From contig DHKM01000002.1 in the NCBI GenBank assembly GCA_002404835.1, positions 27,866 through 91,865 on the forward strand: 64,000 nucleotides of DNA, written 5' to 3'. The stretch is from Bacillales bacterium UBA4694. GTDB lineage: Bacteria > Bacillota_I > Bacilli_A > RFN20 > CAG-288. A program made the translations under genes and the position numbers. The notes beneath the pieces are model-generated. The model searched no databases, was not told where the DNA came from, and saw only the letters and a list, made by a program, of their open reading frames with translations. Within the stretch, counting starts at the first letter, position 1, and each line of letters starts with the position of its first letter. Below, in pieces: positions 8,563 to 58,923 of this stretch.

Positions 8563-8620
8563 AAGGACCACAGGATAAAATCCAATGTTATTGGATCATT
8601 CTGTAAGGTCCTTTTCTTTT
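8563..8620. terminator. Bidirectional terminator between convergent genes
   Basis: AAAAGGACCACAG...CTGTAAGGTCCTTTT long hairpin, with an A-run on one side and a T-run on the other. Confidence 0.45.
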
Positions 8621-39379: not shown

Positions 39380-39940
39380 ATGAAAATCATTTTAGGAATA
39401 GGCAACTTCGGTGATTTATATGAAGACACCAGGCACAATTCCGGATTTCAGGCTGTTGATCTTCTAAGCGAAGATCTCGGAATAAAAGTCAATAAACATG
39501 ACTTCAAATCACTTGTAGGGAAAGGAAAAGCCTTTGATGACGACATCCTTCTGATGAAGCCTCTGACCTATGTCAATCTTAGCGGAGATGCTCTGATCCA
39601 GGCGAAGAATTTCTACAAAGTCGATATCTCGGACATATATGTTCTTGTCGATGATATGGATACAGAACCTGGACATATCAGACTGAAATTGAAAGGTTCT
39701 TCCGCCGGACACAATGGGTTGAAATCCATTATTGCCAATCTCAATACGGATCAGTTCAAGAGAATACGTATCGGAATCGGGAGACCGGGAGTTGGTTCCA
39801 CACCGGATTTTGTTCTTTCGGCACCAAAAGACAAAGAGGTTTATCAGGCTTGGAAAGACGGAATTTCCAAGGCGGCGGAAGCGATGGAATATACCCTTCG
39901 ATTCGGTTTCGAGAAGGCAATGAATCAATACAACAAATAA
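39380..39940 (+). CDS. pth: Peptidyl-tRNA hydrolase
   Basis: MKIILGIGNFGDLYEDTRHNSGF...GHNGLKSI. Confidence 0.9.
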   Translation: MKIILGIGNFGDLYEDTRHNSGFQAVDLLSEDLGIKVNKHDFKSLVGKGKAFDDDILLMKPLTYVNLSGDALIQAKNFYKVDISDIYVLVDDMDTEPGHIRLKLKGSSAGHNGLKSIIANLNTDQFKRIRIGIGRPGVGSTPDFVLSAPKDKEVYQAWKDGISKAAEAMEYTLRFGFEKAMNQYNK

Positions 39941-39941
39941 C

Positions 39942-42900
39942 ATGTCACAATTTGGAAAACGTTCTCTTTTTTCTTACCTACTGAATAATGTTCAGAAGGA
40001 AAACATCGATAACCGCAGAGATGTCAACGTCTCTTCTCCTGAGGCACTTGCAATCTTGACGGCCCTAAGTTTTGATGAAAAACCCAGGAAGATGTTTTTC
40101 CTTTTTCCGACCATTTATGAAGCTGAGGAATTCACCCAGATTCTAGGGGATTATCTCTCCTCCGATGATGTTTTCATGTTCCCTTATGATGAAATCCTGC
40201 GAAGCTCTGCAATCGGTGTCTCTCCGGAAATGGGACTTGAGCGTTGTAGTGCCATTGCTTCGATTATGGATCCAAGACCTTCGATTTTAGTCGCCCATGG
40301 TTCATCAGCTCTTCTTAGGCTTTGTCCGAAAAGCCGATACGAGAAAGGAATCAAGACGATCAAAAAGGGCGATATGCTTGATAAAGAATCTTTTATCAAG
40401 GAACTTTCGAACCTAGGATATTCTTCTATTGATCGAGTCACAAACCGGAATCAGATTGCTACCAGAGGTGAAATCCTCGATGTCTATGATTCGTATTATC
40501 CCGATCCGATCAGAATCCAGTTCTTCGGAGACGAAATCGATGACATCCGTTTCTTCAAGGTTCAGGAGGAACTCTCCTATCAGCATATCGATAAAATCAT
40601 TATTCATCCTGCCAGTCTTCTTCTTTTGACCGAAGAGGAAGTCAAGACCGGTTTTGAAAGAATGGACAAGGAGTGTCAAGAACTCCTTTTATCTACAAAG
40701 GACAGACGAACCGTCGATGAACTATCCAACCGTCTTCAAGATGTGAAGACTCAGGCGGTTACTTTGAATTTAAAGGATATTCAGCAAAGGTTTTATCCGA
40801 TTTTCAATTCTGATGACGATTCGATTCTGGATTATGTAGATGATTATGAAAAATTTCTCTATCATCCTCAGGAGACAAAATCCAGTATTCACGCTGTAAA
40901 AGCTAAGGAAAAAGATTATTTTTCTTCGGCTTATAAAGAAGCAATCTCATTGATAGAAGAAAAAGTATACAAAGAAGAAAAACTCGATTTTATTGATTAT
41001 TCTTCCGTTGTTTTCAATTCCGATGATGAAAACGCCTTTATCGTAAGAGATAATTCTTATAAAAGTATTTCCTATTCTCAGTCGAATCTGATGCTTGAAC
41101 AGTACCTTAAAGAAGGCTACAAAATCAGAATAGCTCTTCCTGAACCGAATCTGACTAATTATGTCAACTATCTTAACAGCGTCGGAATGAATCATACACT
41201 GTATCCAACTCATTCGGCCTTGATGCTCTATGAAGGAAGAATCACACATGGATTCGAGATTCCGAAAGAAAAACATGTTTATCTGAGTTCCAAGGAAATC
41301 TACGGCGTCTCTGATCAAAAATCGAGATTCTTATCTAGATATAAAGAAGCTAAGATCATCCGTCGCTATGAAGATCTTCAGATCGGGGATTATGTCGTTC
41401 ACGAAATCCATGGTGTTGGAAAATATCTCGGTGTCGAAACAATCGATGGTTTGGAATATCTGAAAATCGAATACGCAGATAAGGCTGTCTTCTATCTCCC
41501 ACTAAATCAGTATCGTATGATACGGAAGTATTCGGCAAGGGATGGATATGCTCCCTCTTTGGACAAACTCGGTGGAAGCACATGGTCCAGAAAGAAATCC
41601 AGAATCCGCTCACGCATGGCTTTTTTGGCAGATCAGCTTCTCTCCATCTATGCGGAACGGAAGACAAGGCCCGGATTTGCTTTCCTGAAGGAACCAGAGA
41701 TGGAGTTCGATTTCCGGAAGACCTTCCCATATCCGTATACGGCATGCCAGCTGAAAGTCATCCAGGAAGTATTCGATGATATGGAAAAACCGAATCCGAT
41801 GGACAGACTTATCGCAGGAGATGTCGGATTCGGAAAGACGGAAATTGCTTTCAATGCTGCCTTCAAAGCCATTCTCAGCCACAAACAGGTCGCATTCCTC
41901 TGTCCGACTACGATTCTTTGTATGCAACATTATAAGAATGCTATGGCTCGTTTTGCTCCATACGGAGTGAGAATCTGCGCTTTCAACCGCTTTGTATCCA
42001 AAAAGGAGCAGGATAAGAACATCCAGCTGATCAAAGAAGGAAAAATGGATCTTGTCATCGGAACCCATAGGCTTCTGAGCGATGATATTGTCTTCAAGGA
42101 TCTTGGACTTTATATTGTAGACGAGGAACAGAAATTTGGCGTTACGCATAAAGAAAAAATCAAGGAGAAGGTGAAAAATGTCGATTCACTGACTCTGACT
42201 GCGACCCCGATTCCACGTACACTTCAGATGTCTCTTCTGAATGTCCGTTCATTGTCTCTTCTAGACGAAGCGCCGATCAATAGGATGCCGGTAAAGACGT
42301 ATGTCCTTAAATACGATAAGGAAGTCGTATACGAAGTCATCCAAAAAGAACTGGATCGTAAAGGACAGGTCTATTATCTTCATAACGACATAAAGTCTAT
42401 CTTTACTCTTGCCAGTTCCATTCAGAAGAAGTTTCCGGATTACAAAGTCTCGGTCGTGCATGCCCAAATGGGCGAGGATGAAATCGAGAAAGTCATGGAT
42501 GACTTCTATGACAGCAAATCCGATATCCTTGTCTGCACTTCCATCATCGAATCCGGTCTGGATATTCCTAACGTCAATACTATCCTGGTCGACAATGCGG
42601 ATCATTTCGGCCTTTCACAGCTCTATCAGATCAAGGGACGTGTTGGCAGAAGCGATAGACTTGCTTATGCTTATTTCTTTTTCCGCGATGACAACAAGCT
42701 GACGGATACGGCAAGGCTGAGACTCAAAGCCTTGAAGAACTTCACGGAACTTGGTTCCGGATACAAGATTGCCATGCAAGACCTAAATATCAGAGGAGCA
42801 GGAGATATTCTAGGAAGTGAGCAGGCAGGCTTTGTCGATTCTTTGGGATATGATGCCTACATCGATCTTCTAAATCAGGTTGTTAAAGAAAAATCCTTTG

Positions 42901-43379
42901 CCAATACTGCTGTCGATGATAAACCAAAGAATTTCTTCGAACTGTCGTTCTCCTTGGATGCTCATATTCCGGATGATTACGGGAATGAAAGTCAGAGAAT
43001 CTCGATGTATCGAGAACTGTCTGACTGCAATTCCTATAAAGACATCAATGAGTTTGGAAAGAAGTTGAACGATGTCTATGGACCTTATCCAAGTGAGGTA
43101 GGCAATCTGCTTCTAAAACGTGGAGTCGAGCTGAACCTGAATTCGGGAATTTTCGAAAGTTTCGAAGAAGGTCTGGGAATCTATATTCTCAAGACGACCA
43201 AGGCTTTTTCCATGAAGGAAGGAATCTATAAACAAATCCAGGAAATCATCCAACCGCTTACGGTTAAGATCAAAGTCAAAATCAGCGACAATAAGTTCGG
43301 CTTCTCATTGACTAAGACAAAAGACTATCTTCAGGACCTCCTTTATCTGACTCAAAGTTTAAGAAAACTAGCTGAATAG
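39942..43379 (+). CDS. mfd: Transcription-repair coupling factor
   Basis: Superfamily 2 (SF2) helicase motifs GDVGFGKTEIA, DEEQKFGV, TATPIPRTL. 1145 aa. Conserved pth-mfd linkage. Confidence 0.9.
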   Translation: MSQFGKRSLFSYLLNNVQKENIDNRRDVNVSSPEALAILTALSFDEKPRKMFFLFPTIYEAEEFTQILGDYLSSDDVFMFPYDEILRSSAIGVSPEMGLERCSAIASIMDPRPSILVAHGSSALLRLCPKSRYEKGIKTIKKGDMLDKESFIKELSNLGYSSIDRVTNRNQIATRGEILDVYDSYYPDPIRIQFFGDEIDDIRFFKVQEELSYQHIDKIIIHPASLLLLTEEEVKTGFERMDKECQELLLSTKDRRTVDELSNRLQDVKTQAVTLNLKDIQQRFYPIFNSDDDSILDYVDDYEKFLYHPQETKSSIHAVKAKEKDYFSSAYKEAISLIEEKVYKEEKLDFIDYSSVVFNSDDENAFIVRDNSYKSISYSQSNLMLEQYLKEGYKIRIALPEPNLTNYVNYLNSVGMNHTLYPTHSALMLYEGRITHGFEIPKEKHVYLSSKEIYGVSDQKSRFLSRYKEAKIIRRYEDLQIGDYVVHEIHGVGKYLGVETIDGLEYLKIEYADKAVFYLPLNQYRMIRKYSARDGYAPSLDKLGGSTWSRKKSRIRSRMAFLADQLLSIYAERKTRPGFAFLKEPEMEFDFRKTFPYPYTACQLKVIQEVFDDMEKPNPMDRLIAGDVGFGKTEIAFNAAFKAILSHKQVAFLCPTTILCMQHYKNAMARFAPYGVRICAFNRFVSKKEQDKNIQLIKEGKMDLVIGTHRLLSDDIVFKDLGLYIVDEEQKFGVTHKEKIKEKVKNVDSLTLTATPIPRTLQMSLLNVRSLSLLDEAPINRMPVKTYVLKYDKEVVYEVIQKELDRKGQVYYLHNDIKSIFTLASSIQKKFPDYKVSVVHAQMGEDEIEKVMDDFYDSKSDILVCTSIIESGLDIPNVNTILVDNADHFGLSQLYQIKGRVGRSDRLAYAYFFFRDDNKLTDTARLRLKALKNFTELGSGYKIAMQDLNIRGAGDILGSEQAGFVDSLGYDAYIDLLNQVVKEKSFANTAVDDKPKNFFELSFSLDAHIPDDYGNESQRISMYRELSDCNSYKDINEFGKKLNDVYGPYPSEVGNLLLKRGVELNLNSGIFESFEEGLGIYILKTTKAFSMKEGIYKQIQEIIQPLTVKIKVKISDNKFGFSLTKTKDYLQDLLYLTQSLRKLAE

Positions 43380-43382
43380 AAA

Positions 43383-43429
43383 AAGCCATTACTTTGTAGA
43401 GACTATCTACAAGGTAGTGGCTTGTTTTT
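43383..43429. terminator. Bidirectional terminator between mfd and the convergent giant lipoprotein gene
   Basis: Imperfect 18-bp stem AAGCCATTACTTTGTAGA/TCTACAAGGTAGTGGCTT, with an A-run upstream and a T-run downstream. Confidence 0.5.
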
Positions 43430-46400
43430 AGTTGTCATGATAGAAGAAGACGCTGGTTGGTCCGGAACCATAGCTACCGGTATTGGTGTAGGTGGGTCCG
43501 TTTTTCTTTTTTCCGTTGTCTTTGATTTTAGAACCATCCCCTGATAATAGGCTGTCGGCTTCAACAGACGTAATCAAGTAGGTCTCTAGATTCGGATTTT
43601 CAAAACCGCCGCAGGCTGTGACAAACTTATAGTAGCGTGACATCTTTCCGTTTTCACTGTACGGGCAGGTAGATCCATAATTCGGAAGAGTCAGTGTGAA
43701 CTGGTTTTCACTTGATTTCAGTTCAGCTTCAACAAGGCCTCCTGCAATCGTAATTTTGGCTCCTATAGAAAGGAAATTGAGGATGTTTTCAGAACTATAT
43801 CCTAACGAGATTTCCTGGTTTCCACTGAACGTAATGACAGGAATGTTCAATATTGAACCTAAATCAAGGGAGAGGTTGAATTTTTTGCTTTGCTTGTCTT
43901 CTTGTGCGGATTTGATGACCTTGGAGAAGTCGTTGGATTTGATCAAGGTAGATGAGGAAGATGAGCTCTCGTCATCTTTGATATTACTTGCCAATGTATA
44001 ATTGAGAATAGACCCTGCATCAAGCGTGTAATTGAAAAGATAATAGATAAGATGAGTGGTTTTGGTGAAGTCTTCTGCTGTTGTATAGAAGTATTCGGAG
44101 GTGGTTGTATACTTCGTCTTAAATTTCCAATTCTCCCAAACGGTAGAAGTGCTTGTCTTGGTTTGACAGACGAAAATCTGATTTTCCTTGACAAAGTATT
44201 CCGTCATTCGATATCCGTCATCGCTCATGTTTTTTTCATGGTTGTTTATGGCAAGATAGGCATAGGCTTCATTGTTCTGAATGTATATCTTCGCCTTGGC
44301 ATAAGCGTCAACGTTGATCAAACTAGAAGAAATTTTCAATACTTTGAGATTCAGCTTTAACCGTCCTTCCATCTCCATATAATTGTGCGAAGTCGTTGTG
44401 ACAAGACAATTAAGCAATGTCTTGAATCCAGCTACATCAACGGTATACCCGGTATCTAGGTCCATACTTGGTTTTGGATTCTTATCGAAGGCGGTCAAGC
44501 TCAGTGATGCTTCGATCGTATATTTTCCGAGGGAAGCCGAAATGGTGGCCTTTTTGATTCCCGTTGAATCATAGTCGATTGTCAAGGTTTCGTCTTTGTC
44601 GTTCTCATAGGTGACTGTATCATCGAACAGTTTGCTGGAAGCGACAAGTACAATCTGACTGTCCGTCAGTTCGACTTTCTTCACATATTTGTATCTCAGA
44701 ATTCTTGATGGATCCTTGGATGCAATCATATCCATAAGAGGAAGTCCGGTCGTTCCGTTTTCGACATGACCGAGATAACGATAAAGAAGGTTGTTTTCGT
44801 CGATGGATTTGGCAATTTTCATGATCTCTTCTACATCGCTTTTCTCCATGGATATCTTCATGTTGTCGTTGTATTTGGCGATGAACTGTCCGTCCACGAG
44901 TTTTAGACTATCCTTATCGAAAACACCGTGATAATCGAATACGACTTTCTGATCGGCAGTCTTTGTGGAATCACCAAGATAAGGATGTGTGATTCCAAGA
45001 CCGCCATAGCAGACGGGGTTGTTACTATCTGTCATATCGACTGCGACAAAGCTTTTGTTTAAAGAACTATTTGTATCCCCATAGGTATCGTTGAAGTCTC
45101 CGATGGATACCTCCTGATCCAATCCGCTGTCGGTTTTGTATTTGACGGAAGCATTTGCTTCGATTCCGAACTTTTCGAATGTGGTAGGAAGCGAGTAGAA
45201 GACATCAACCAGCTGGGAAGCGTTGTTGATTACCGTATATTCGCTCTTCTGGATATCGTTAAGCAGATCTTCTTCGTAATCTTCAAAGGAGATGGTGGCA
45301 CTCAATGAGTCTGTTTCTTTGTCGATGAGGGAGTGAGCGAGGTTCAGTGTAATGGAGGAAATCTGATTCGTTGTGGTGTTGATAGAGAATACAATGTCGG
45401 AAAGTTTTCCTTCGTAGTCACTACCTTTTAGGAAATAATCAGGAGTGACTTTCAGAATGAGGTTGCTTGTATCCGTGTTGTCTTTGTCGATAAAAACAAA
45501 GCTTTCAAGGTCTTTTATCGATCCTTCCTTTAGGCTATCGGTGAAATTCTTGTAGTTTGAACTGCTTTTGATAGCGGAAAGAATGGAATTGGTTTCTTCA
45601 ATCGAATCGGAAGCGGAAGTTGTCTTTACTTTGGTGTTTTTGTCTATGACATCCTTGATCTTGGTGATTTCAGAATCCGGGAACTGATTCTTCAGAAGAT
45701 AAGTCCCATCATCATAGTTGTAGCCTAGATAAATGTTCTTGTCCTGATATCGGACCTCGATTTTGTTCTTCATCGTATCATCTCCGGTATCGATATCCAG
45801 GGCAATGGAATAATTTCCTTTGCTGAAATGGTCGATTCCGTCGGCCAGGGAAGAAAGATCGTTATCATCTTTGACCACTTTTGTCATATCAGCCTTGATT
45901 TTTCCATTCAGGGAATAGGCAACACCAGCTGAGGTATCCTTGTAGGTCAAAGCCAGATTGGCCTGCACCTTTTTGTTGTCGACAATGTCGACCAGGGTTT
46001 TGAAAATCGGAGTAATAGCTTCGTAGTTCTTATAGTTCTTTTCTTCTTCACTGACGTCTTTTCTTGTGACATTGCTGCTATCCTTGATACTTAAGGTACA
46101 GCTGAGTCTGTAGGAACCTATATTCAGATTTTCAAGGCGAATATCCTTTAAGCCTTTATCTTTTCCGCCTTCTATGATATCCAGTGCGACAAGGAAAGCA
46201 TCATCGTTAGCGGAAGAAAGGCCGAAGAACTTAGAGTAGAATTCGATTTCGAATCCTTGGTTGAAGGTATAGGTGAAGCTCTTGATCATGCCTTCGTATT
46301 TTGAATAATCACCGGCAACAAGACTATCGAAATCCGTCTGGGATAAGGTGATATTCAGAATATCCGTAATGTTCTTGATTAGGCTGTCTTTTCCGATGTC

Positions 46401-47579
46401 AGAGACATAAGTGAAGATATCCGCAAGAGTGGTTGTCATAACCTTTCCATGGAAGAGATTGTTCAGGGAAAGATAAAGTGTTTCGTCTTGGAAGTGGATG
46501 GATAAGTCATTGAGGATCTTTGTTCCGTTTACATGGCGTAGATTCAGTCGATAGTCTCCTTTGTCATAGTTGATGAAGGTATCGCTGGCAAAGGCTTCGA
46601 ATTCACCGACAACGGTTTGCTTCTTGCCGTTTTGGTCGTCCAAAGAAAGATTCAACCCGATATTTGCCTTTTTGTCGTTTCCCAGCTTTGTCAATGTCCG
46701 GAAAAGAGAAGAAGTGGATGCTGTCAGATCATCGAACTGGTTCTGATCTTTGCGGATATAGGATCCGGTGGAACGAAGTTCTAGGGAACTGTCAGCGCTG
46801 ATGGCTGTTTTCTTCTCGGTTGTGACATCGACCAAAGCGAAATCCTTTAAGGAGATACCTTTTAGGGAATAATTTTCATCCGCGAGAAGATTTAGCTTGA
46901 ATGAATTCAGTTTTGTGTTTTCGTCAATGGAAATTTCTGGTATGACGATATCAAGAGAATAACCGGAAACTCCATGTTCTACCTTGGAATTCAAAACCTG
47001 GGAATTTGAAATTATATCTTTGATTTTGCTGATGATTTTTCCAAAATCGATTTGATCCTGGCTATCATTTGTCAATGAGACATCAAAGCCTAAGGCATTG
47101 ATCAATTGCAGAATCTGATTCAGTGTTCTTGGGGTTGAAATGGAATAGGCATGAACTTTATAGACAAGATAGATATATCCGTCTTGTTCCAAGGAAAGGG
47201 AAAGGTTGTCGATAACGGCATTTTCATATTCCAATTTTAGAATACAAGAGAGATTGACATCCAATGAATTCAGCTTGGAAAAATCAATGATCAAGTCTGA
47301 AGCTGTGATTTTTATTGGTTTTCCGTTTGAAAGATCAATCTGAAAACTGAAATTGTCGAAGGCAAATTCTTTTGCCTTCGAGATATTGCTCATCACGTTA
47401 TTCAGGATATTGGACGAATCCTCTTCTTCGGAATTATCGATATCTGGGACAATGATATTGGGTTCGTCGATATTTCCTTGATTTTTGTTGCTGTTGGAAT
47501 ATCCAAAAGAGGAGCACGAGCTAAGGGCCATACTTAAAAACAAGGATAAAGAAATCAGTAATTGTTTGCTATGTTTCAT
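43428..47579 (-). CDS. Giant surface lipoprotein (about 1380 aa), paralog A of the divergent pair
   Basis: MKHSKQLLISLSLFLSMALSSCSS lipobox (the ORF call begins at a TTG at 47594; I chose the ATG at 47579). Ser/Asn/Asp-rich with a Gly-rich C-terminus (TGSYGSGPTS). Homologous blocks with 48871..53652 (PDID..SS..ILNN; SxPRTxxQIxxLIN; YSLPTTxxxxGIxANASxxxxT). Confidence 0.6.
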   Translation of the reverse strand: MKHSKQLLISLSLFLSMALSSCSSFGYSNSNKNQGNIDEPNIIVPDIDNSEEEDSSNILNNVMSNISKAKEFAFDNFSFQIDLSNGKPIKITASDLIIDFSKLNSLDVNLSCILKLEYENAVIDNLSLSLEQDGYIYLVYKVHAYSISTPRTLNQILQLINALGFDVSLTNDSQDQIDFGKIISKIKDIISNSQVLNSKVEHGVSGYSLDIVIPEISIDENTKLNSFKLNLLADENYSLKGISLKDFALVDVTTEKKTAISADSSLELRSTGSYIRKDQNQFDDLTASTSSLFRTLTKLGNDKKANIGLNLSLDDQNGKKQTVVGEFEAFASDTFINYDKGDYRLNLRHVNGTKILNDLSIHFQDETLYLSLNNLFHGKVMTTTLADIFTYVSDIGKDSLIKNITDILNITLSQTDFDSLVAGDYSKYEGMIKSFTYTFNQGFEIEFYSKFFGLSSANDDAFLVALDIIEGGKDKGLKDIRLENLNIGSYRLSCTLSIKDSSNVTRKDVSEEEKNYKNYEAITPIFKTLVDIVDNKKVQANLALTYKDTSAGVAYSLNGKIKADMTKVVKDDNDLSSLADGIDHFSKGNYSIALDIDTGDDTMKNKIEVRYQDKNIYLGYNYDDGTYLLKNQFPDSEITKIKDVIDKNTKVKTTSASDSIEETNSILSAIKSSSNYKNFTDSLKEGSIKDLESFVFIDKDNTDTSNLILKVTPDYFLKGSDYEGKLSDIVFSINTTTNQISSITLNLAHSLIDKETDSLSATISFEDYEEDLLNDIQKSEYTVINNASQLVDVFYSLPTTFEKFGIEANASVKYKTDSGLDQEVSIGDFNDTYGDTNSSLNKSFVAVDMTDSNNPVCYGGLGITHPYLGDSTKTADQKVVFDYHGVFDKDSLKLVDGQFIAKYNDNMKISMEKSDVEEIMKIAKSIDENNLLYRYLGHVENGTTGLPLMDMIASKDPSRILRYKYVKKVELTDSQIVLVASSKLFDDTVTYENDKDETLTIDYDSTGIKKATISASLGKYTIEASLSLTAFDKNPKPSMDLDTGYTVDVAGFKTLLNCLVTTTSHNYMEMEGRLKLNLKVLKISSSLINVDAYAKAKIYIQNNEAYAYLAINNHEKNMSDDGYRMTEYFVKENQIFVCQTKTSTSTVWENWKFKTKYTTTSEYFYTTAEDFTKTTHLIYYLFNYTLDAGSILNYTLASNIKDDESSSSSSTLIKSNDFSKVIKSAQEDKQSKKFNLSLDLGSILNIPVITFSGNQEISLGYSSENILNFLSIGAKITIAGGLVEAELKSSENQFTLTLPNYGSTCPYSENGKMSRYYKFVTACGGFENPNLETYLITSVEADSLLSGDGSKIKDNGKKKNGPTYTNTGSYGSGPTSVFFYHDN

Positions 47580-47752
47580 TTTTGATTTTATCAATATTAT
47601 AGTTTATCGGAAAAAGATAACGTATCCAATGTTATTTGGCCTAATGATACATTCCAATAATGGTTTTACATGAAAACTATTTTCGGGACTATATTATTTA
47701 CTTCCGAAACATTGTTATTTTTTCTTTTCGCGCGTTTAAATATTATGGCAAT

Positions 47753-48874
47753 ATGAAAAACGAAAACGATAATTTAGAGAACTCTCCTTCTTTTGAGATT
47801 GTTAAAATGGAAGAAGAGACCATACCAAAGAAACATAAAATCGACAAAGACAAGCTGAAATGGGGCCTTTGTATCGCGGTGGTCTGTGTATTCGCTGCAT
47901 TCTTCGGCACAAGTGGCGGATACTTCATTTATTCGACCTTGCATCCGACAAAGGACAATGTCAGTATCGGAACGGAAACAATCCTGAAGGATGAAGAAGT
48001 CCAGAAGGAAATAAAAAACGGGACTCTGACAAGCACCTACAAAGACAAGGCATACAAAGTCTTGAATTATTCTTTCTATAGACAGGCATCCTATCGGTAT
48101 TCCCTGACTATGACTACTGGAAAGACCCATGCCTTGATTGCAGACCAGAAAATCAAATCTGCAACCCTTGTTACTCCGGAATGCGATTATTTTGAAAATA
48201 TTTCGTCCGGCTTCACATCGACAGCCTATCGGTTCTACGATTACAAGAATGGAACCAATACGTTGGACAGCATGATGTGTTCTAAGGAAAAGGACTGGGA
48301 AACAAAGACACCGGATAAAATGTCTTATGACGATTATATCCAGAAATTCGGAAAGCTCTATAAAGGCCAGTATTATGTTACCTATGATACGACAGATACG
48401 ACCAAAGCGGTTCCGGATGTCTACCTTTCTCAGAATGAAGAGGATTATAAGAATGCGTTGAAATCCGGGAAAAACGTGGGGAATGTGACCGGTGTATCCA
48501 TCTATACTATGAACTCCAATACAGTGGAAAGCTCGACAATCGAAAAGACGGATACAGGATATCAGGTAAGTGTCAATTTCAATGTCAAGAATGGGGCCTG
48601 CTCCTACTTCAAAGTCCAGATGCATACAACAGGCGGGGTGGAAGTCAAATTCGTTTCTTCCACGATCACCTATGATTTAGATGAAGACCTGAATCTTATA
48701 CATGGGAAAACAATCGACAAATATACGACGATGGGTGTTACAGCAGATCAACAGTTGGATATTTATTATTATCACAACAATGTCGAATCATTATTCGGTG
48801 ATCAGATGATTACGGTACCTGAAAAAGATTCTTCGACGACGTTTAAAGGATATGACTTACTTCCTAAGGAGTGA
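47753..48874 (+). CDS. TM-anchored (type II) protein, translationally coupled to giant paralog B
   Basis: Cytoplasmic tail, then the TM helix WGLCIAVVCVFAAFFGTSGGYFIY, then a roughly 300-aa ectodomain. Its stop overlaps the start of the next gene (ATGA at 48871). Confidence 0.5.
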   Translation: MKNENDNLENSPSFEIVKMEEETIPKKHKIDKDKLKWGLCIAVVCVFAAFFGTSGGYFIYSTLHPTKDNVSIGTETILKDEEVQKEIKNGTLTSTYKDKAYKVLNYSFYRQASYRYSLTMTTGKTHALIADQKIKSATLVTPECDYFENISSGFTSTAYRFYDYKNGTNTLDSMMCSKEKDWETKTPDKMSYDDYIQKFGKLYKGQYYVTYDTTDTTKAVPDVYLSQNEEDYKNALKSGKNVGNVTGVSIYTMNSNTVESSTIEKTDTGYQVSVNFNVKNGACSYFKVQMHTTGGVEVKFVSSTITYDLDEDLNLIHGKTIDKYTTMGVTADQQLDIYYYHNNVESLFGDQMITVPEKDSSTTFKGYDLLPKE

Positions 48875-51800
48875 ATATTATGAAAAACAGAAAGAAAAGA
48901 ACAAGTTTTAAAAGAAAAGCGGAAATATTGACTTTGGTTGCCCTCGGAACCATGAGTATCTCTGGATCCTTTGCCTATGTTTCGGTAAAGAACGCGGAAA
49001 AAGACAATGGAAACAATGGAAGTATCCTGACTCCGGATATTGATCGGGATGACGATGATTCCTCCCATGATGCATTGAGCTACATACTCAACAACATGCT
49101 TTCCTGCAAATCCATGAAATTCAACAATCTCGATATTGTTGCCAATCCTGGATCCGCATCCACTCAGGCCACGATTGCTCTTTCTGACCTTGGCGTCGAT
49201 CTTACCAACCTCAATTCTACCAGTATCTCTGCGCAAGGTAATATGGCAGTCTGCTTTGGCGGATATGAAAAAGAAAGCGAAAAGGGCGATGTCAAGAAAC
49301 TTAACAATACCATAACAACCTCCATGCATTTTGCTTTGGAGGATCTTACGACACTTTATCTGTCTGCCTTCAATGGACACTTCAAGCTTTCTGCACCGAG
49401 AACAATCGCTCAGATTTCGGCTTTAATCAATAAGTTCACCCCGTCCAGTGAAAACAAACCTTCCCAGACCAGCAACAACAATACGGATATCATGGAAATT
49501 GTCAATAAGGTCAAAGAAGTCATTTCCGGTAGTGATACTTCTATCGGATTGTCTATCGTGGACAACAAGAAAGATTCCATCGTCATTACCATCAATGATA
49601 TGGTTTTCGGCAAGACCGGTGAAACACAGACTGTTATCTCCGGGCTTAAGATTGTCTTGGGTTATGAAGGTACATGGGGAAACAATGACGGCGTTCTTAC
49701 AGATGCTACTTTGACTTCACTGGAAGTCGGCAGTCAGGCTGAACCGATCAAAATCCAGCAGCAGTATAATGGAAGTAAAGTCAATGATGTTTTGGCATCT
49801 CTTTATATTTCTACAGGGGAAAACGGAATCGTCATCGATAAAGAAAATGGAATGACTCTTGACGATCATTCCAACTATAACGATATGACTGATCCGAATC
49901 AGTCTGTTTTCTCTACTATCGGCGATATTTTCATGAAGAATTCAAACGGATCCGTTATGATGGCAAAAGCCAATATCGGACTGAACATCGATATCGATAA
50001 TTTCAATCAGGAAACCTATGCGAAAAAAGAAAACTTCATGAGCTTCGATGGCAGCCTCAAACTGGATGCCTCATCCGTTTCTCAGTTCCTTTCTTCTTCC
50101 AGGATGCTTCTGGAATTGAACAATGTCAAAAAAGGAAGCGACGTTAGTCAGACCGAAAAGCTGGATAGTCTGAAGATGTATTATGCCGGTGGCAATGAAG
50201 GTGCAGCTTATATCAATTTCGATGACGCTTACAAAGTCAAAATTGACAATACAGCTTCTTCTGAATTGGTCAAATATCTGTCTGATAATGGCAATGATAT
50301 CATCTCCAGCATTACTGATCAGGTCAAGGCTGCTTTGAATGCTGTTCCTAGCGATGCCATCAAGGATGCTGCAGAGAACGACACCAAGACAAGCGAAATC
50401 ATCGATAAGATTGCCGACTTCGTCTATCAGAAGACCGGAACGCTTCCGAACTCTGACCTGAATTCCTTGATCAACTTCGATTATATTCCGGATACGGCAG
50501 CCAAGAAGGGAACCTTTGTCTTCAAGCTCAGAAAAGATCTTCTTGGCATGAAGACCGTCGACCCTGAGAATCTTTCCGATACGGATTGGATGAGTGTTTC
50601 CATTCATATCACGACTGACAAGATTACCATCACCAACGGAAAAATCGATGAAACATACAAAGGAAGAATCCAGGATGTTACGATTTCCGGAATCGACATC
50701 AATGACAAGACGGTCATCGTCAAGATTGATTTGTCTAAGATTACGGATGTCAATATTGAATCCGATGTCTTTACGGAGGACGAGCATTATGTTTCCATCA
50801 ATGGAACCGTCGGTATTATCAAGACACTCGGAAACTATATCATCAATCAAAAAGGCGGAGTCAACTATGCTCTTACCTATCTCCCTGAGAACAAGGACAC
50901 TTCTTCTTCCTTTGGAATGAGCGGCTCTATCGGAGTCGATCTCAGTGAAATCAATTCCTTCAAGCAGCTTGGAAGTAGTGGATCTGTCTTTGGGCTTACT
51001 TCTTCTCAGTTCTATTTCACCAGTGAAATCGCAACCAAGAATGCAAGTGACACCAGCAAGAATCATTCCAGAAACTTGGAAGTCTCCTATAAAAAAGAAG
51101 AAAACAATTCCAGAAATCTTTATTTTGCCTATGATGATTGCTTCAAAAACTATGTCTCAGACGCTTCCATCAGCGATATTTGCTCCGTATTGGATAACAA
51201 GGTTTCCGGCCAGAGTTCCTCTGCTCCTCTTGCCATCAGCGGAATGGATGAAGTTCTTTCTGCTCTTGGTGTATCCGAGAAATTCCAGAATGATATCAAA
51301 GCCATCGTCAATGACAAGTCTCTGAGAACCCTGAATTCTTTCCTGACAGTCACGCAAGGTGAAAGCAAAGATGTTCTCGTTCTCTCTCTGAATTTAAGCT
51401 ATATTTTCGCAGGATCCGATCTTGCTAGTAAGGTCAAATCGATTGATGTCACCTTAGATGCTTCGACAGAAGCCTTTAAGTCTATCAAGGTCGGCGGATA
51501 TCGCGACAATAATAACGCCCTTCTTGAATTCGAAGTCGATTTCACCGACTTCAACATGCCGACTACTGACTATGGCGATTATGTTGAAATCAAGGATGCT
51601 ACTTCCATTTTCGATTCCTTCTACAATCTTCCTACCACGCTTGATGAATATGGTCTTGGAATCAACGCCTCTTTGACAGACAATACCAACAATCAGCTTG
51701 TCGTAGGATTGAATTCCGGTCTTGTTATCGACCGTACACATAACAACTACGATGGCGCAGTTGTCATATCTCATCCGTCTCTTTCGAATCTCGATGGCGG

Positions 51801-53652
51801 AAACAGTATGGCAAAACAGAAAATCGAATTTGCCTATGATTCCATGGAGAAGCAGGAATCCGGTGATTACGTTTCAATCCAGGATCCTACTTTTGTTGCC
51901 GAATACAATGACAGAATGCATATCAAGATGGGAAGCAGTTCTGTCAAAGATCTTGTATCAACGATTTCCAATGATAAATCCACACACAAACTCCTTGAAG
52001 CTTTGACTTCCTTGAATTTGGTTGCGAACGGACTTCCGCTTGAAAAGGCGGCAACGACAAAAGACGCCAGCGTTCTTCTTGAAAACAAATTGATAGACAA
52101 AGTTGTGTTCGATGATGCAAACAACCAGATTGTTCTTACCATGTTTGCTTCTCTGTTCAATAGCGAAGCCTCTGATACCGACAGAGTAACAGTCTCTGTT
52201 TCCTATACGGAAGCGACCAAAGACGAAGAAGGTAAAGTGACGGACCATTCGTCAGCCAAACTCAATCGCATTTCTCTTTCTGGACTGACCTTGAAGGGTG
52301 GAAAGCAGATTGAAGCCTCCATTTCCTTGGAGTCCGATTATCAAAATACATTGGACAATGCCGTGAAGGATACGACCACAGGAGAGACTGCTTTCCATGT
52401 TGCCAGACCCGGTGATAAGGCAAGCAACGGACAAGAAGTCGGTTTCATCAACCTTGCGGATTTCAATGATCTGATTAAAGCAGGAATCGATACTACAAAC
52501 TTCAATTATTATTCTTTGGCTGGAAATGTTTCTTTGGATCTTACTGCCTGGCTCCAAGAATCTCAAATTGATATCAATGAGTTTTCCTTCGATCTTTCTT
52601 TGAAATTCACATTCTTTATTGCTGATGGACAGCTCTATGCCGACTTCTATATCAATAGAGGACAGAATCAGTTTGCTGATTTCAAGTTCAACGGCGATTA
52701 TGTGTATGTCACCTCTTCCAATGATACAGAGAAAGGGCAGTATAAGACCTATCGAATGAAGAAGGCAGATGTCACGTCCAAGAACAACATGCTCTATCTC
52801 CTTCTTTCCGAAGGACTTGGAATCGATTCCCATATTGCGGGAAGAACCTTGATGGCTCAGCTCTATGCCGGATTCAACAACCAGGTCGTCAACCCGGAAG
52901 AAAATGCTGAAGAAACCGTAGAAGAATCGGTAGACGAATCAGCAGAGGAATCAACTTCCTCTGGTCTTAATCTTCCAATCAAACTTGGAATCACGGACGA
53001 TTTCTCTTCTATCCTTGCCAATACTGCCATTCAGTCAAAGGTCAACACCGGAGTCGAAGGTGAACAGGTCAACAAGTGGTCCATTGTTCTCAATCCGAAT
53101 TCTCTCTTTACTTCTGCTTCCGATATTTCCAAACTTGTCAGCTTCGGCGAAACCAGATTGGATATTTATGATATGGCTATCCGCAATCAGAACGATGACG
53201 GAAGTTGGACTAGAACAACCACACCGCTTTACGGAATGAATCTTAAGACTGCCATCAATCTCCTTCCCGGAACCTATGGTGACGATACTCAGGTTGCCAG
53301 GGTCAAACTCGGTCTCTCTCTCCATGCCAATTACAGCAACAATACGGATGGATATGGTATTGTCAGCGATGATATGGTCAAAAATTACCGCGATTCAACG
53401 GCCCAAGCAAGCAACGATTCAACGGCTGAAGCAAAATCCAATACCGAGATCGGTGTATCCAATTTCTTTGCCTGCACTCACAATATCGACAAGGTTGTCA
53501 CCAGTGACTTCAATGTCAATGCTGTCTCTCTGATTTCGAAAGAGCTTTACGACTTCTCCAGCGGAAATCTTATCGAATTCTATAATAACTATAATATCGA
53601 TACTTCTGCTATCGTCTATATCAACGACATTTTCGAGTATTATAAGGATTAA
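48871..53652 (+). CDS. Giant secreted/surface protein (1593 aa), paralog B of the divergent pair
   Basis: N-terminal basic stretch plus a hydrophobic signal (ILTLVALGTMSISGSFAYVS, no lipobox Cys). Shares several conserved blocks with the 43428..47579 protein. Contains an acidic linker (EENAEETVEESVDESAEEST). Confidence 0.6.
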   Translation: MNIMKNRKKRTSFKRKAEILTLVALGTMSISGSFAYVSVKNAEKDNGNNGSILTPDIDRDDDDSSHDALSYILNNMLSCKSMKFNNLDIVANPGSASTQATIALSDLGVDLTNLNSTSISAQGNMAVCFGGYEKESEKGDVKKLNNTITTSMHFALEDLTTLYLSAFNGHFKLSAPRTIAQISALINKFTPSSENKPSQTSNNNTDIMEIVNKVKEVISGSDTSIGLSIVDNKKDSIVITINDMVFGKTGETQTVISGLKIVLGYEGTWGNNDGVLTDATLTSLEVGSQAEPIKIQQQYNGSKVNDVLASLYISTGENGIVIDKENGMTLDDHSNYNDMTDPNQSVFSTIGDIFMKNSNGSVMMAKANIGLNIDIDNFNQETYAKKENFMSFDGSLKLDASSVSQFLSSSRMLLELNNVKKGSDVSQTEKLDSLKMYYAGGNEGAAYINFDDAYKVKIDNTASSELVKYLSDNGNDIISSITDQVKAALNAVPSDAIKDAAENDTKTSEIIDKIADFVYQKTGTLPNSDLNSLINFDYIPDTAAKKGTFVFKLRKDLLGMKTVDPENLSDTDWMSVSIHITTDKITITNGKIDETYKGRIQDVTISGIDINDKTVIVKIDLSKITDVNIESDVFTEDEHYVSINGTVGIIKTLGNYIINQKGGVNYALTYLPENKDTSSSFGMSGSIGVDLSEINSFKQLGSSGSVFGLTSSQFYFTSEIATKNASDTSKNHSRNLEVSYKKEENNSRNLYFAYDDCFKNYVSDASISDICSVLDNKVSGQSSSAPLAISGMDEVLSALGVSEKFQNDIKAIVNDKSLRTLNSFLTVTQGESKDVLVLSLNLSYIFAGSDLASKVKSIDVTLDASTEAFKSIKVGGYRDNNNALLEFEVDFTDFNMPTTDYGDYVEIKDATSIFDSFYNLPTTLDEYGLGINASLTDNTNNQLVVGLNSGLVIDRTHNNYDGAVVISHPSLSNLDGGNSMAKQKIEFAYDSMEKQESGDYVSIQDPTFVAEYNDRMHIKMGSSSVKDLVSTISNDKSTHKLLEALTSLNLVANGLPLEKAATTKDASVLLENKLIDKVVFDDANNQIVLTMFASLFNSEASDTDRVTVSVSYTEATKDEEGKVTDHSSAKLNRISLSGLTLKGGKQIEASISLESDYQNTLDNAVKDTTTGETAFHVARPGDKASNGQEVGFINLADFNDLIKAGIDTTNFNYYSLAGNVSLDLTAWLQESQIDINEFSFDLSLKFTFFIADGQLYADFYINRGQNQFADFKFNGDYVYVTSSNDTEKGQYKTYRMKKADVTSKNNMLYLLLSEGLGIDSHIAGRTLMAQLYAGFNNQVVNPEENAEETVEESVDESAEESTSSGLNLPIKLGITDDFSSILANTAIQSKVNTGVEGEQVNKWSIVLNPNSLFTSASDISKLVSFGETRLDIYDMAIRNQNDDGSWTRTTTPLYGMNLKTAINLLPGTYGDDTQVARVKLGLSLHANYSNNTDGYGIVSDDMVKNYRDSTAQASNDSTAEAKSNTEIGVSNFFACTHNIDKVVTSDFNVNAVSLISKELYDFSSGNLIEFYNNYNIDTSAIVYINDIFEYYKD

Positions 53653-53662
53653 TGTAAAAATA

Positions 53663-53700
53663 AATCCCTTTGCCTTTTCATAAGACGAAGGGATTTTATT
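53663..53700 (+). terminator. Terminator after giant paralog B
   Basis: AAATCCCTT-loop-AAGGGATTT hairpin followed by TTTATT. Confidence 0.5.
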
Positions 53701-53706
53701 GTGAGT

Positions 53707-53746
53707 AAAAAACGGACAAACAAAAAGTTCCACTCGCAGGTGGAAC
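53707..53746 (-). terminator. Terminator after the alcohol dehydrogenase gene
   Basis: GTTCCAC-tcgcag-GTGGAAC hairpin at 53727..53746 with a long T-rich tail on the minus strand. Confidence 0.5.
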
Positions 53747-53753
53747 TTGATTG

Positions 53754-55870: not shown

Positions 55871-56634
55871 TTAGTTGTTCTTCATGTAAATGTCGTAAAG
55901 ACCGTCGAATACGATGTCCGGATTATATGTCATATCCGTTAGAAGGCTTCTCACTAGGGAAGCGTCTGGTCCAGTCAGGACTTTGAATAAGGATGATCCG
56001 TGCTCTGTTTCGATTCTTCTGGAAAACTCTTCGATCAAACAAGCGTATCCGTTAAGAATGCCGTTGTTCATGCTTTCTTTCGTTGATTTTCCAAGCATTC
56101 TTTTAGGCTTTTCGAATTCGATATCCATCAGCTGTGCGTTGGAATTGAACATCAGGGAAGAAGAAGTCATCAGTCCTGGAAAAAGCGAACCACCGACAAA
56201 TTCTTTCCTTTTTGTTACAACAACAAAGGAAACAACAGTGGACATATCGACGATTAGGGTATCTCGCTGATAATCGTTGACTCCGCCAAGAGCTTCTGCA
56301 ATCAGATCGGTTCCGACTTCGCTTGGATTATCCATTCGGATGGCAAGACCTGTTTTCAATGTTCGATTGAGAACGAGGCATTGCTTTTTTAGAAGCATGG
56401 TTGTGGCATTTCGGATGCGGTTTGTCAAAGAGGGAACTACAGAAGATAGAATAGCACCATCAAAATCCTGGATGGATAGATGTTCCATTTCTAAAAACGT
56501 GGCCAGAATATGCTGATATTCGAGCTCGCTTCTTAGTTTGTCAGCATAGGTTCGAAACGAAAAAACGGCTTTCCTTTCTTGATAGACTCTTATATCAAGG
56601 GAAAGATTGCTGAGATCCAGTAGAAGAATCATGA
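55871..56634 (-). CDS. coaX: Type III pantothenate kinase
   Basis: Start at MILLLDLSNLSL behind a GGAGGTG RBS. Acetate and sugar kinases/Hsc70/actin (ASKHA) fold motifs (LLLDLSN, GTD, LIVDMSTVV, LTGPDA). Confidence 0.7.
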
Positions 56635-56732
56635 AAAGACACCTCCTGACTATAGTCCTATCTAGGATAGGTACCATGTATACAATGTCTTTGGACTGCA
56701 TTACTATACAGTTTTGCTTTGCGAAATGCAAG

Positions 56733-56757
56733 AAAAAACCATGGGACTAACCCATGG
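56733..56757 (-). terminator. Terminator after the HMA-domain gene
   Basis: CCATGGG-actaa-CCCATGG hairpin plus a T-run on the minus strand. Confidence 0.5.
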
Positions 56758-56759
56758 CA

Positions 56760-57047
56760 TCAATCTTTCTTATAGAATTTGTAGTGTTTCTTCGAAAACG
56801 TGAAAAAGAAGGTATCTTTCAGATTTAGCTCTCTATTGATTTCTTTTATCCGATATCCGGAGTTCTGTAATGCGTTTTGGAATTCTTCTTCGTCCAGTGT
56901 CACATCGGATAAGACCGTGCATGTATTTTTAGTGTGGCTTGCCTTGACTTTGATGGCTCTATTTACATGGTCTTTTATAAGAGTGGAGACATGCTCTTCG
57001 CACATGGGACATTTCATCCCATCGATTTTCAGTGTATAGCGATTCAT
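56760..57047 (-). CDS. Heavy-metal-associated (HMA) domain protein, CopZ-like with a basic C-terminal extension
   Basis: YTLKIDGMKCPMCEEHV: GMxCxxC metal-binding loop in a beta-alpha-beta-beta-alpha-beta context. 95 aa. Confidence 0.65.
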   Translation of the reverse strand: MNRYTLKIDGMKCPMCEEHVSTLIKDHVNRAIKVKASHTKNTCTVLSDVTLDEEEFQNALQNSGYRIKEINRELNLKDTFFFTFSKKHYKFYKKD

Positions 57048-57109
57048 AGGAACTCTCCTTTGTTAGACATGGCTAATTATATTCTTTTTAATTGAAAAAG
57101 GAAAGGATT

Positions 57110-57682
57110 TCACTGTTTCTTGGATAAAATTCCCCGGATATTCGAATTCTTCAAATTCTCGAGCATGCTGCTTCGGATAAAGACAAGCGTCGAATAGATA
57201 TGGTCTTCTTTTTTTTCGGGGTCTTTCACAAGATCGAGAAAGAAATAACTGATATTCTCTCTTTTATGATAGAAATAGAAACTCGGGGTGATGAAGATTT
57301 CATTGCCGTCCTCTTTTTCCTGGAGGTTCTCTCTTCTGGATACATCATATCCTTTCGGGATTTGGAAGAAAAAGACAAGCTTTGCTTCAGGGTTCTTCTT
57401 GAAATCAATCCATTGAACATCTGAACTGGAATAGGAAAGACCGACCATTTTGAGAAAAGAATCCTTTTCTTCATCGTTTTCCATCAAATAAGAATTGAAG
57501 TAGTATGTTTTCTCTGTGGAAGCTAGATTGTTCTGGAGCTCTTTTTCCTGGATGTTTCTGTAAGGCAAAGAAAAGGAGACAGGAATCTCCTTGCCATAGA
57601 AACACTGGTAGCAGGTAACTTCTGTTTTCTGACAGGAAGAAAGCAGAAGGGAAAACAGAAGAAGAAAATGGTTCTTTTTCAT
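57110..57682 (-). CDS. Lipoprotein, function unknown
   Basis: MKKNHFLLLFSLLLSSCQK lipobox. Lies 3 nt downstream of tilS. Confidence 0.55.
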   Translation of the reverse strand: MKKNHFLLLFSLLLSSCQKTEVTCYQCFYGKEIPVSFSLPYRNIQEKELQNNLASTEKTYYFNSYLMENDEEKDSFLKMVGLSYSSSDVQWIDFKKNPEAKLVFFFQIPKGYDVSRRENLQEKEDGNEIFITPSFYFYHKRENISYFFLDLVKDPEKKEDHIYSTLVFIRSSMLENLKNSNIRGILSKKQ

Positions 57683-57684
57683 CT

Positions 57685-58923
57685 TTAATATAATACCTTA
57701 AATGTAAACGGAATTCTTTTTTTTCGGATATCGACAAAGAAAGGAACGTATTTTATCTTTCCTTGGTATTCGAAAACGGGGTAAATCTTTTTAAGACGGT
57801 TCGGTATTTCCTGATCTTCAAGGAAGCTAGTGACGTTTTTCTCTTTTAGATTGGTATCGATTGTATCCCCGTCATGACAATTTCTTATGATAAAAGGAAA
57901 AGCGGGAATGTTGAAAACACGGGGATCAGAAAGGTCGATGATGAATTTCTCTGTCTCATAGCGTCCTGGTTTGTCAAAGATATAGGAATAGCCTGTCTGC
58001 TTGGTTTTATCTATAAAGAAGTGGAAGCAGTTGCGGAAAAGGGATTTCTCATCGGATAGTTCCATTTGGTTGACGGATCTTCCATTTAGGAATTCGTAGG
58101 CTTCTTTGCCAAGTCCTGCCAATCTTTTTGAGGATACATTCAGATTTTCTTTTTTCAATAAAAAGAAAAGAAGCCTCCTTTTTTCTTCCTCCGAAAAGCA
58201 ATCGTAATCCGAAAAAGATATCGGATAGGAAAGTAAGGCAAACTTATGGTAAAGTCCTGAAATCCTTAGATTCTCGCTGTCGATCTCTTTCTGAATCTCT
58301 CTTTGCTTGGAAACGGGTATCTCTTCTTTTCGAATCAGATTCCGTTTCGTATGGTTATCGTAGTTAGTGATATCGTCATAGAAAGGAATGCCGTTTTCAA
58401 TAAGGAATTGAGTAAGTTCTGATTTTGAAATGGAGAGAATTGGCCTATAAACCATCATTCCATTCAAAGTTGTTTTTGGAGGTAATCCGTAAAACAATGG
58501 TATGTTCTTTCTCTCTTTCTGAAGAATATATGTCTCAACAGAATCGGTCAATTGGTGGGCAGTCAGAAGTGCAGTGAATCCATATTTCTTGCATAGGGAT
58601 TCAAAAAGTGTATAACGGTAGATTCTAGCCCAGTCTTCGAAATTACCGTCTTTTTTCCTGTCGTATTCCGTATCATATTTGAAGAGTTCCAGTGAAAAAG
58701 AAGAAATCATATCGATAACAAGTTTCTCTTCCTTATTCACAAAAGGCGAATCATGATAGTTGATGTAGCAAACAGCGATTCTGTCCTTCAGTGTGTCTTT
58801 ATAGTATTCATGAAGCATATAAAGAAGAAAGACAGAATCCGGTCCACCAGAAAAAGCGAGAAGAAACCTTCCCGCTTTCATTTTCAGTTTATCGAATTCT
58901 TCAAAGATTCTATTTTTGTTCAT
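57685..58923 (-). CDS. tilS: tRNA(Ile)-lysidine synthetase
   Basis: PP-loop LAFSGGPDSVFLL. 412 aa. Conserved yabO-divIC-tilS order. Confidence 0.85.
   Translation of the reverse strand: MNKNRIFEEFDKLKMKAGRFLLAFSGGPDSVFLLYMLHEYYKDTLKDRIAVCYINYHDSPFVNKEEKLVIDMISSFSLELFKYDTEYDRKKDGNFEDWARIYRYTLFESLCKKYGFTALLTAHQLTDSVETYILQKERKNIPLFYGLPPKTTLNGMMVYRPILSISKSELTQFLIENGIPFYDDITNYDNHTKRNLIRKEEIPVSKQREIQKEIDSENLRISGLYHKFALLSYPISFSDYDCFSEEEKRRLLFFLLKKENLNVSSKRLAGLGKEAYEFLNGRSVNQMELSDEKSLFRNCFHFFIDKTKQTGYSYIFDKPGRYETEKFIIDLSDPRVFNIPAFPFIIRNCHDGDTIDTNLKEKNVTSFLEDQEIPNRLKKIYPVFEYQGKIKYVPFFVDIRKKRIPFTFKVLY

Follow-up and report, generated by a model that had tools for sequence, protein, structure and literature searches.

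The three-gene locus

The stretch of DNA analysed here (the window; 64,000 nucleotides of contig DHKM01000002.1 of Bacillales bacterium UBA4694) contains a trio of genes, here named A, B and C, whose neighbours are ordinary housekeeping genes. A and B encode giant paralogous proteins and C encodes a membrane-anchored partner; together they may form a complex at the cell surface that handles lipids or other hydrophobic ligands. The features of the locus are as follows, with window coordinates and with protein lengths in amino acids (aa); ORF stands for open reading frame.

43383-43423: strong hairpin terminator (stem of 18 bp), lying between mfd and A, whose 3' ends converge; left border
43428-47579, minus strand: gene A, 1383 aa, lipoprotein-type giant; a start at TTG 47594 would lengthen the ORF to 1388 aa
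47580-47749: spacer between A and C, 170 bp, 27% GC (window 41%), presumed bidirectional promoter region
47750-48874, plus strand: gene C, 374 aa, bitopic (N-in) partner with an ectodomain of ~310 aa
48866-48871, plus strand: perfect Shine-Dalgarno sequence AAGGAG, inside the last codons of C and 8 nt upstream of ATG 48880
48880-53652, plus strand: gene B, 1590 aa, giant paralogue; hydrophobic anchor at the N-terminus, no Cys
53725-53748: bidirectional hairpin terminator after B; right border of the three-gene module

The 1593-aa and 1388-aa ORFs of the two giants are the largest in the window, as the initial annotation of this DNA had stated. A is taken as 1383 aa because its orthologues begin at Met6. 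The mechanical ORF of C starts at ATG 47660 and has 404 aa; all homologues (373-380 aa) begin where Met31 (47750) stands, and the 30 codons before it are therefore probably not translated. For B, ATG 48880 is preferred over GTG 48871 because of the perfect AAGGAG and because the 100%-identical database protein P0007 also has 1590 aa, the length obtained from this ATG. The initial annotation let the start of B overlap the stop of C (TGA, 48872-48874), but that overlap exists only for GTG 48871 and is probably not real. The AAGGAG within the end of C and the ATG close behind its stop indicate that B is co-transcribed with C and probably also translationally coupled to it.

Exactly 170 bp separate the likely start codons of A (Met6, 47579) and C (47750). 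The giants had been described as diverging from an AT-rich region of this size; the length and composition of the region stand, but the divergent partner of A is C, and B follows C. A promoter consensus scan gave no result above the shuffled background. The spacer contains an inverted repeat, GTTTT-ACATG-AAAAC at 47663-47677, that could be an operator; it reads TAGTTTT-N5-AAAACTA in the related locus L001 and is not kept in L003 and L005. The short blocks AGTTTATC, AATGATA and CATTATT are common to all four spacers compared.

A and B are paralogues

A and B are true, ancient paralogues over their whole length. Composition-adjusted BLASTP aligns them at E=1e-37 with 25% identity over ~990 columns, and a separate N-terminal block aligns at E=4e-8. 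In a 15-sequence alignment of both orthologue sets, the number of identical consensus positions per 50 residues is 5-19, mostly 10-19, and even from end to end, which excludes low-complexity composition as the source of the similarity and bears out the homology claimed in the initial annotation. The three blocks that it had quoted are located at A50/B55, A150/B171 and A800/B918. Both giants are extracytoplasmic, rich in Ser, Thr, Asn and Asp, and poor in Cys.

Chance or compositional similarity, mis-called ORFs, or mobile or phage-derived cargo could in principle produce such a pair, and the abundance of Ser, Asn and Asp and the exclusively metagenomic origin of the family's database records would be in keeping with this. 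It is effectively refuted by the composition-adjusted E value, by full-length orthologues of 32-100% identity on many independent contigs, by the retention of pth-mfd and coaX as syntenic neighbours, by the absence of PHROGs or PADLOC matches and of a convincing viral fold match, and by a GC content of the trio equal to that of the window. Origin from a phage tail or receptor protein was rejected, the viral fold search in BFVD having given low-probability matches only.

An undescribed protein family

None of the three proteins matches Pfam, NCBIfam, PHROGs or PADLOC (A and B have no Pfam match even at E<=1), and neither the single proteins nor the family profiles match PDB sequences. Word-indexed searches of 5.8 billion proteins returned six to nine relatives each for A, B and C, all 58-100% identical except for one cross-paralogue match at 25%. 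An exhaustive HMMER search of 1.84 billion cluster representatives (E<=0.001), with a profile of A[283-1388] built from five A-type and two B-type sequences, found only 82 relatives; most have 1270-1580 aa, and in a subgroup of 850-1000 aa the match falls mainly in the C-terminal region of the profile. Of the 41 distant members scanned, not one carries a Pfam domain (E<=0.01). The LPXTG motif is absent from the giants, and there is no adhesin-repeat Pfam domain in A, B, C or these 41 relatives, in agreement with the initial annotation. Its view of the proteins as undescribed also holds: every cluster member that carries a source name is a 'hypothetical protein', and none is named as an adhesin or S-layer protein. 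In a literature search, nothing like a tandem array of LolA-like modules was found for Gram-positive bacteria. The fold class described below is known; the family, its five-module fused architecture, the pair of paralogues and the dedicated bitopic partner are undescribed.

Membrane anchors and partner C

Hydropathy analysis gives A, B and C one N-terminal hydrophobic segment each.

47514-47579, minus strand: signal peptide and lipobox of A, …SMA-L-S-S-C; the Cys codon is 47514-47516, and the Cys is residue 27 of the TTG-started ORF
47849-47932, plus strand: transmembrane segment of C, residues 34-61, ending in GTSGGYFIY
48925-48981, plus strand: N-terminal hydrophobic segment of B, containing ILTLVALGTMSISGSFAYV, a motif conserved in B-type proteins across the family

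A conforms to the bacterial lipoprotein pattern, [LVI][ASTVI][GAS]C after a hydrophobic segment. The initial annotation had already recognised its lipobox as LSSC. Among the five close orthologues whose N-terminus is complete, four have LSAC or LSGC at this place, and P0006 is without the Cys. C has a single hydrophobic segment behind a Lys-rich N-terminal tail, which corresponds to the type II topology previously assigned to it.

The B-type N-terminal segments end in a Gly/Ser-rich run followed by Tyr (SISGSFAY, GISGTATY, ASGSAVYF). The sequence of a signal peptide is normally free to drift. Given the conservation of this segment across the family, a qualitative statement, the N-terminus of B is likely to be retained as a transmembrane anchor; this suggests that B stays in the membrane by its own N-terminus and does not lose it as a disposable signal peptide. 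The initial annotation had instead regarded the signal of B as cleavable and C as the protein that holds B at the surface. The helices of C-type proteins end in a similar way (GTSGGYFIY, GGFGGYFVY), and the Gly/Ser-rich and Tyr end is also seen in distant C homologues, so the helices of B and C may pack together through these shared ends.

Module architecture and fold

An AlphaFold2 model of A[200-1388], made from a 43-sequence family alignment, has a mean predicted local distance difference test score (pLDDT) of 80.8 and a predicted template-modelling score (pTM) of 0.56; an earlier run on the same segment with 15 sequences was poor (pLDDT 51). The model contains four complete modules and the last strands of a fifth, N-terminal one. 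Each complete module has ~220-260 residues and 11 antiparallel strands in the order 6+2+3: an N-terminal helix, six strands, two to three helices, two strands, a short helix and three strands. The modules of A (minus strand) and B (plus strand, placed by alignment to A) are as follows.

46770-47447: A M1, residues ~50-275; modelled only in its last strands; weak profile-level relation to M2 and M3
46068-46736: A M2, residues 287-509; helix, six strands, three helices, two strands, short helix, three strands
45264-46034: A M3, residues 521-777; 6+2+3 strand pattern
44478-45236: A M4, residues 787-1039; best-conserved family motifs, FYxLPT and AxYNDxM
43668-44450: A M5, residues 1049-1309; same secondary-structure pattern; core shared with the short (~950-aa) members
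43431-43667: C-terminal tail of A, residues 1310-1388; conserved within the family
49033-49842: B M1
49876-50751: B M2
50788-51555: B M3
51583-52362: B M4
52390-53241: B M5

By sequence comparison with hhalign, M2, M3 and M4 are proven homologous repeats (M2-M3 99.6% probability, E=1.5e-24; M2-M4 98.8%; M3-M4 97.1%), and cross-hits between repeats are seen by hidden Markov model in A and in B. M1 reaches 71% with M2 and 84% with M3. No sequence relation of M5 to M2-M4 is detectable by this comparison, and its tie to them is the structural pattern. C gave no hhalign signal against M1-M5, so it is not a single-module relative of the giants; against E. coli LolA it gave no signal either.

The highest-ranking Foldseek matches of the model in the PDB are LolA proteins from two species (2w7q, probability 1.00, E=7.9e-5, TM 0.41; 8v1k, probability 1.00; E=7.9e-5 and 2.7e-4, target TM 0.40-0.41 for the two species). 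The other high-probability matches are the ependymin-like carotenoid-binding EPD-BCP1 (0.98), RseB (0.96), LolB (0.93) and LolA3 (0.91), so that matches of high probability belong to the LolA/LolB/RseB/ependymin types only; the poor first model gave the same class. M2-M5 of the A model show 11 strands with helices, as expected for the unclosed antiparallel barrel of LolA and LolB, and no LolA-, LolB- or MucB_RseB-like sequence is recognised by Pfam, by PDB sequences or, for E. coli LolA, by hhalign. We conclude with moderate support, since the TM is only ~0.4, that each giant is predicted to be a chain of five LolA-like half-barrel modules, B by its alignment to A. This main structural feature had escaped the initial annotation, in which beta-helix or Ig-like repeats were considered worth seeking by structure prediction; the modelled fold of A is neither.

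A different use of the same chain would be a bridge of the AsmA, TamB or bridge-like lipid transfer protein (BLTP) type, in which the modules align into one continuous hydrophobic groove, a path for lipids from the cell membrane to a second layer or to the membrane of another cell. The anchor of B followed by >1500 residues of repeated beta-sheet modules resembles the AsmA-like proteins, and among low-probability Foldseek matches (prob <=0.2 or E>0.05) the poor first model found LptD, lipovitellin and apolipoprotein B, LptD recurring with the second model, while BFVD offered a viral Chorein-N (VPS13-like) protein at a probability of 0.41 and TMq 0.11. We regard such a bridge as improbable, however: neither A, B nor the 41 relatives has an AsmA, TamB or DUF490 match in Pfam, the confident fold matches are discrete LolA-type domains and not beta-taco segments, and the hosts are Bacilli without an outer membrane.

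Conservation of the trio and its host lineage

A, B and C are a conserved, clade-restricted gene trio of uncultured gut Bacilli of the RFN20 type. The order pth-mfd-A<>C-B-FeADH-ECF-S-coaX (<> marks divergent genes) is kept in the close relatives L001-L003 and L005. In L006, a complete 2.08-Mb metagenome-assembled genome (MAG) of the Bacilli, A<>C-B lies beside coaX with 32-41% identity; A<>C-B is also found in L013, C-B-A in L007, L009 and L014, and C followed by a giant at a contig end in L015. The initial annotation had suggested looking for co-occurrence of the 374-aa partner with the giants in relatives, and it extends to distant ones: in every long-form locus examined a C homologue stands directly upstream of the B-type giant, down to ~16-25% identity, and an A-type gene adjoins wherever the contig reaches far enough. 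The gene upstream of the giant in L009 matches C at E=1e-15 (BLASTP), and a C profile built without the targets finds them among all ORFs of the distant loci at E=8e-74 to 4e-20. In the short 956-aa form (L010) the upstream 316-aa gene is not detectably C-like.

The short branch (956 aa; L010/L011, 8001-10871) matches only the C-terminal core and has a cleavable-looking signal; a CotH gene nearby suggests a spore-forming host. In L013 a PlsC-type acyltransferase gene (PF01553; 9948-10787) lies directly 3' of the B-type giant and in the same orientation. It is the only lipid-related neighbour seen, has no counterpart at the other loci, and is a weak hint at a lipid role. Beyond its own three genes, the trio has no consistently linked gene type.

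The L006 genome is placed in GTDB in Bacilli; RFN20; CAG-288; UBA7642 (PMC9387265). CAG-288 is predicted to lack peptidoglycan and to be non-sporulating, and RFN20 to lack sortases (PMC10868615). For some of the family, at least, the wall-poor, Mollicutes-like host supposed in the initial annotation is thus plausible. TGA serves as a stop codon in the window organism, which therefore has the standard code. Two papers on RFN20, searched for lipid and fatty-acid terms, yielded nothing on lipid or fatty-acid biosynthesis.

In the window the trio is flanked by pth-mfd (39380-43379) and coaX…tilS (55871-58923), which share one region of the Bacillus subtilis chromosome. The B. subtilis genes between them, spoVT, yabP/Q, divIC and spoIIE, are all missing from this region of the window, which fits a non-sporulating, reduced lineage. 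The MAG records of L004, L008 and L005 have Bacteroidales names ('Paludibacteraceae bacterium' or 'uncultured Prevotellaceae bacterium') and yet carry a Bacilli-type locus (L005 keeps pth-mfd-A-C-B in full, and its neighbouring genes are 81-95% identical to those of the window; L004 and L008 have A-type and B-type genes); the labels or the binning look wrong.

A proposed role in lipid handling at the cell surface

With a probability of about 0.4, we propose by analogy with the fold class that the trio acts as a membrane-anchored surface complex handling hydrophobic ligands or lipids. A, B and C would associate on the outer face of the cell membrane, A held by its lipid anchor and B and C each by one N-terminal transmembrane helix. 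The ten half-barrels would offer hydrophobic pockets for acyl chains or other lipids, and the complex could pick up, hold or pass on lipids or lipid-anchored molecules at the surface, either as a relay or as a set of binding sites. By analogy with P116 of Mycoplasma, a gut bacterium that is reduced and possibly has no wall might profit from such an activity.

Nearly all well-studied members of the LolA-like fold carry acyl chains or other lipids. As this fold is mostly lipid-carrying, and a metabolically reduced, in part wall-less lineage has to acquire and manage its lipids at an exposed membrane, a lipid role appears the likeliest. Five LolA-like modules in each giant would likewise shift the probable function from adhesion towards hydrophobic ligands; nothing points specifically to the adhesion apparatus that the initial annotation had envisaged.

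Several observations weigh against the proposal. The likeness to LolA is moderate and confined to the fold (TM ~0.4, root-mean-square deviation ~9-10 Å), and hhalign of each module against E. coli LolA gives probabilities <1%, that is, no signal. At the loci examined, the trio has no consistent link with a transporter, an acyl-handling enzyme or any further lipid gene. The box is looser in distant A-type genes (…LTC or MTC) or has no Cys. A, B and C are ~60-73% identical where Mfd and Pth are 81-91% identical, so that the trio evolves faster than its cytoplasmic neighbours, as would also fit an exposed coat or adhesin. Finally, a LolA-like fold may have a role outside lipids, as in GerS, which activates an amidase (bioRxiv 10.1101/2025.01.13.632879).

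Some of these points lend themselves to the main rival explanation, in which the giants are a structural coat or adhesin: an anchored layer or fibrils would protect or attach a wall-poor cell, and the modules would be rigid blocks without a lipid role. The large size, extracytoplasmic location and composition of the giants, their rapid evolution relative to housekeeping neighbours and the lack of a consistently linked lipid-metabolism gene are all compatible with it; LolA-like folds can act through protein-protein contacts, as GerS does, and in a lineage predicted to have no sortases and, in CAG-288, no peptidoglycan, surface proteins must be membrane-anchored (PMC10868615). We judge a coat or adhesin a serious rival, though somewhat less likely than lipid handling. 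The LPXTG motif is missing, as is any of the known adhesin, S-layer, SLH, Ig-like or beta-helix domains, and every one of the best fold matches carries hydrophobic ligands. The window has a single copy each of A, B and C, and the trio is syntenic among housekeeping genes and collinear down to 16-25% identity, unlike variable adhesins that are polymorphic in repeat number.

The lipid-handling complex may also be imagined in a bolder form, which we hold to be less likely than not. Two anchored chains of five half-barrels, organised by a bitopic partner and with a reach of ~20 nm, could constitute a new class of lipid-transfer machine in a wall-less gut bacterium. Through it lipids might be passed hand to hand or along an aligned groove between the cell and the environment or host membranes. 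If so, it would be an independent, LolA-based invention of what P116 does in Mycoplasma and the bridge-like transfer proteins do in eukaryotes and diderms.

Orders such as RFN20, RF39 and ML615J-28, abundant in gut and rumen, consist of uncultured relatives of the mycoplasmas with a little-understood cell surface, and the trio is a conserved envelope system in part of this group that escapes all current annotation. If its modules bind lipids, LolA-type carriers have been recruited outside diderms and fused into giant arrays, wall-less bacteria have a second, unrelated solution to lipid scavenging beside P116, and there is a candidate route of membrane-lipid supply in reduced organisms, which matters for culturing them. 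Even as a coat or adhesin, the giants are a new protein family with a new repeat module, deserving a Pfam entry and a role as a lineage marker.

Other genes of the window

Two large GH3 glycosidases are encoded at 8620-11517 and 13330-17469 (965 and 1379 aa). Both have a permuted order, with the GH3 C-terminal domain before Fn3-like and GH3 N-terminal domains, and the 1379-aa enzyme has two additional He_PIG Ig-like domains; a third GH3 gene lies at the window end (62420-63976). Between a Ham1-type NTPase gene and pth, a 281-aa multi-pass membrane protein (38518-39363) is only 30-45% identical where the flanking genes are 84-91% identical, an unusually fast evolution; its Pfam matches are sub-threshold only (Wzy_C, DUF2663). 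ORFs without a Pfam domain lie at 35699-37564, 28077-29519, 6582-7331, 7512-8519 and 57110-57682, and one of them, of 621 aa, has a LemA gene as its neighbour and shows 70-75% conservation in L001 and L005. Scans of the 64-kb window found no tRNA gene and, at the gathering threshold, no Rfam family.

Comparison with known systems

The LolA/LolB/RseB/ependymin fold class typically holds acyl chains or other hydrophobic ligands in an open barrel. Its members have, like each complete module of A, an N-terminal helix, 11 antiparallel strands and a helical insert; the lipid-holding role of LolA and LolB is summarised in PMC13078400. The known LolA types, however, consist of one or two domains (~180-320 aa) and are soluble periplasmic proteins or lipoproteins of diderms that work with an ABC transporter and an outer membrane, whereas the trio has five modules fused in each membrane-anchored giant (~1400-1600 aa), a bitopic partner, no adjoining transporter, a monoderm or wall-less host lineage, and no detectable sequence relationship to them. 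An ABC transporter adjoins the trio in none of the loci examined, a search limited to these loci, the rest of the genomes not being searched. The Lol sorting pathway, with its LolCDE-type ABC transporter and outer membrane, is therefore not recognisable at these loci, and the hosts are Bacilli.

AsmA-like proteins, TamB and the bridge-like lipid transfer proteins share with the giants great length, an N-terminal anchor (in B), repeated strand-then-helix units and a presumed role with hydrophobic cargo. They differ in that AsmA and TamB form a continuous taco, whereas A matches closed-ended LolA-type modules, and the host of the trio has no outer membrane. Pfam finds no AsmA, AsmA_2, TamB (DUF490), DUF748-type or Chorein-N domain in A, B or the 41 relatives, and the top 50 PDB matches of Foldseek include neither a TamB nor a BLTP structure. 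Sortase-anchored, S-layer and classical adhesin proteins are likewise set apart from the giants, which have no LPXTG motif, no such Pfam domain, and a fold that is neither Ig-like nor beta-helical.

GerS of Clostridioides difficile is a precedent for a Gram-positive lipoprotein with a LolA-like fold and no LolA sequence similarity (bioRxiv 10.1101/2025.01.13.632879). It consists, however, of just one small domain and serves to activate a cortex amidase in a spore-forming species, whereas A and B are five-module giants and the classified relative L006, unlike the host of GerS, belongs to a family predicted to be non-sporulating and wall-less (PMC10868615).

The proposed functional analogue of the trio is P116 of Mycoplasma pneumoniae, a wall-less bacterium derived from the Bacilli. 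This large surface protein has a big hydrophobic cavity, with which it extracts lipids from its surroundings without ATP (PMC10023570, PMC12487902). The two are structurally unrelated: the PDB sequence searches with the trio gave no match to P116 (MPN_213), and P116 is not in the top 50 Foldseek PDB matches of the A model. P116 is a homodimer with its own 'previously unseen' fold, whereas the trio is encoded by three genes and consists of tandem arrays with a dedicated partner.

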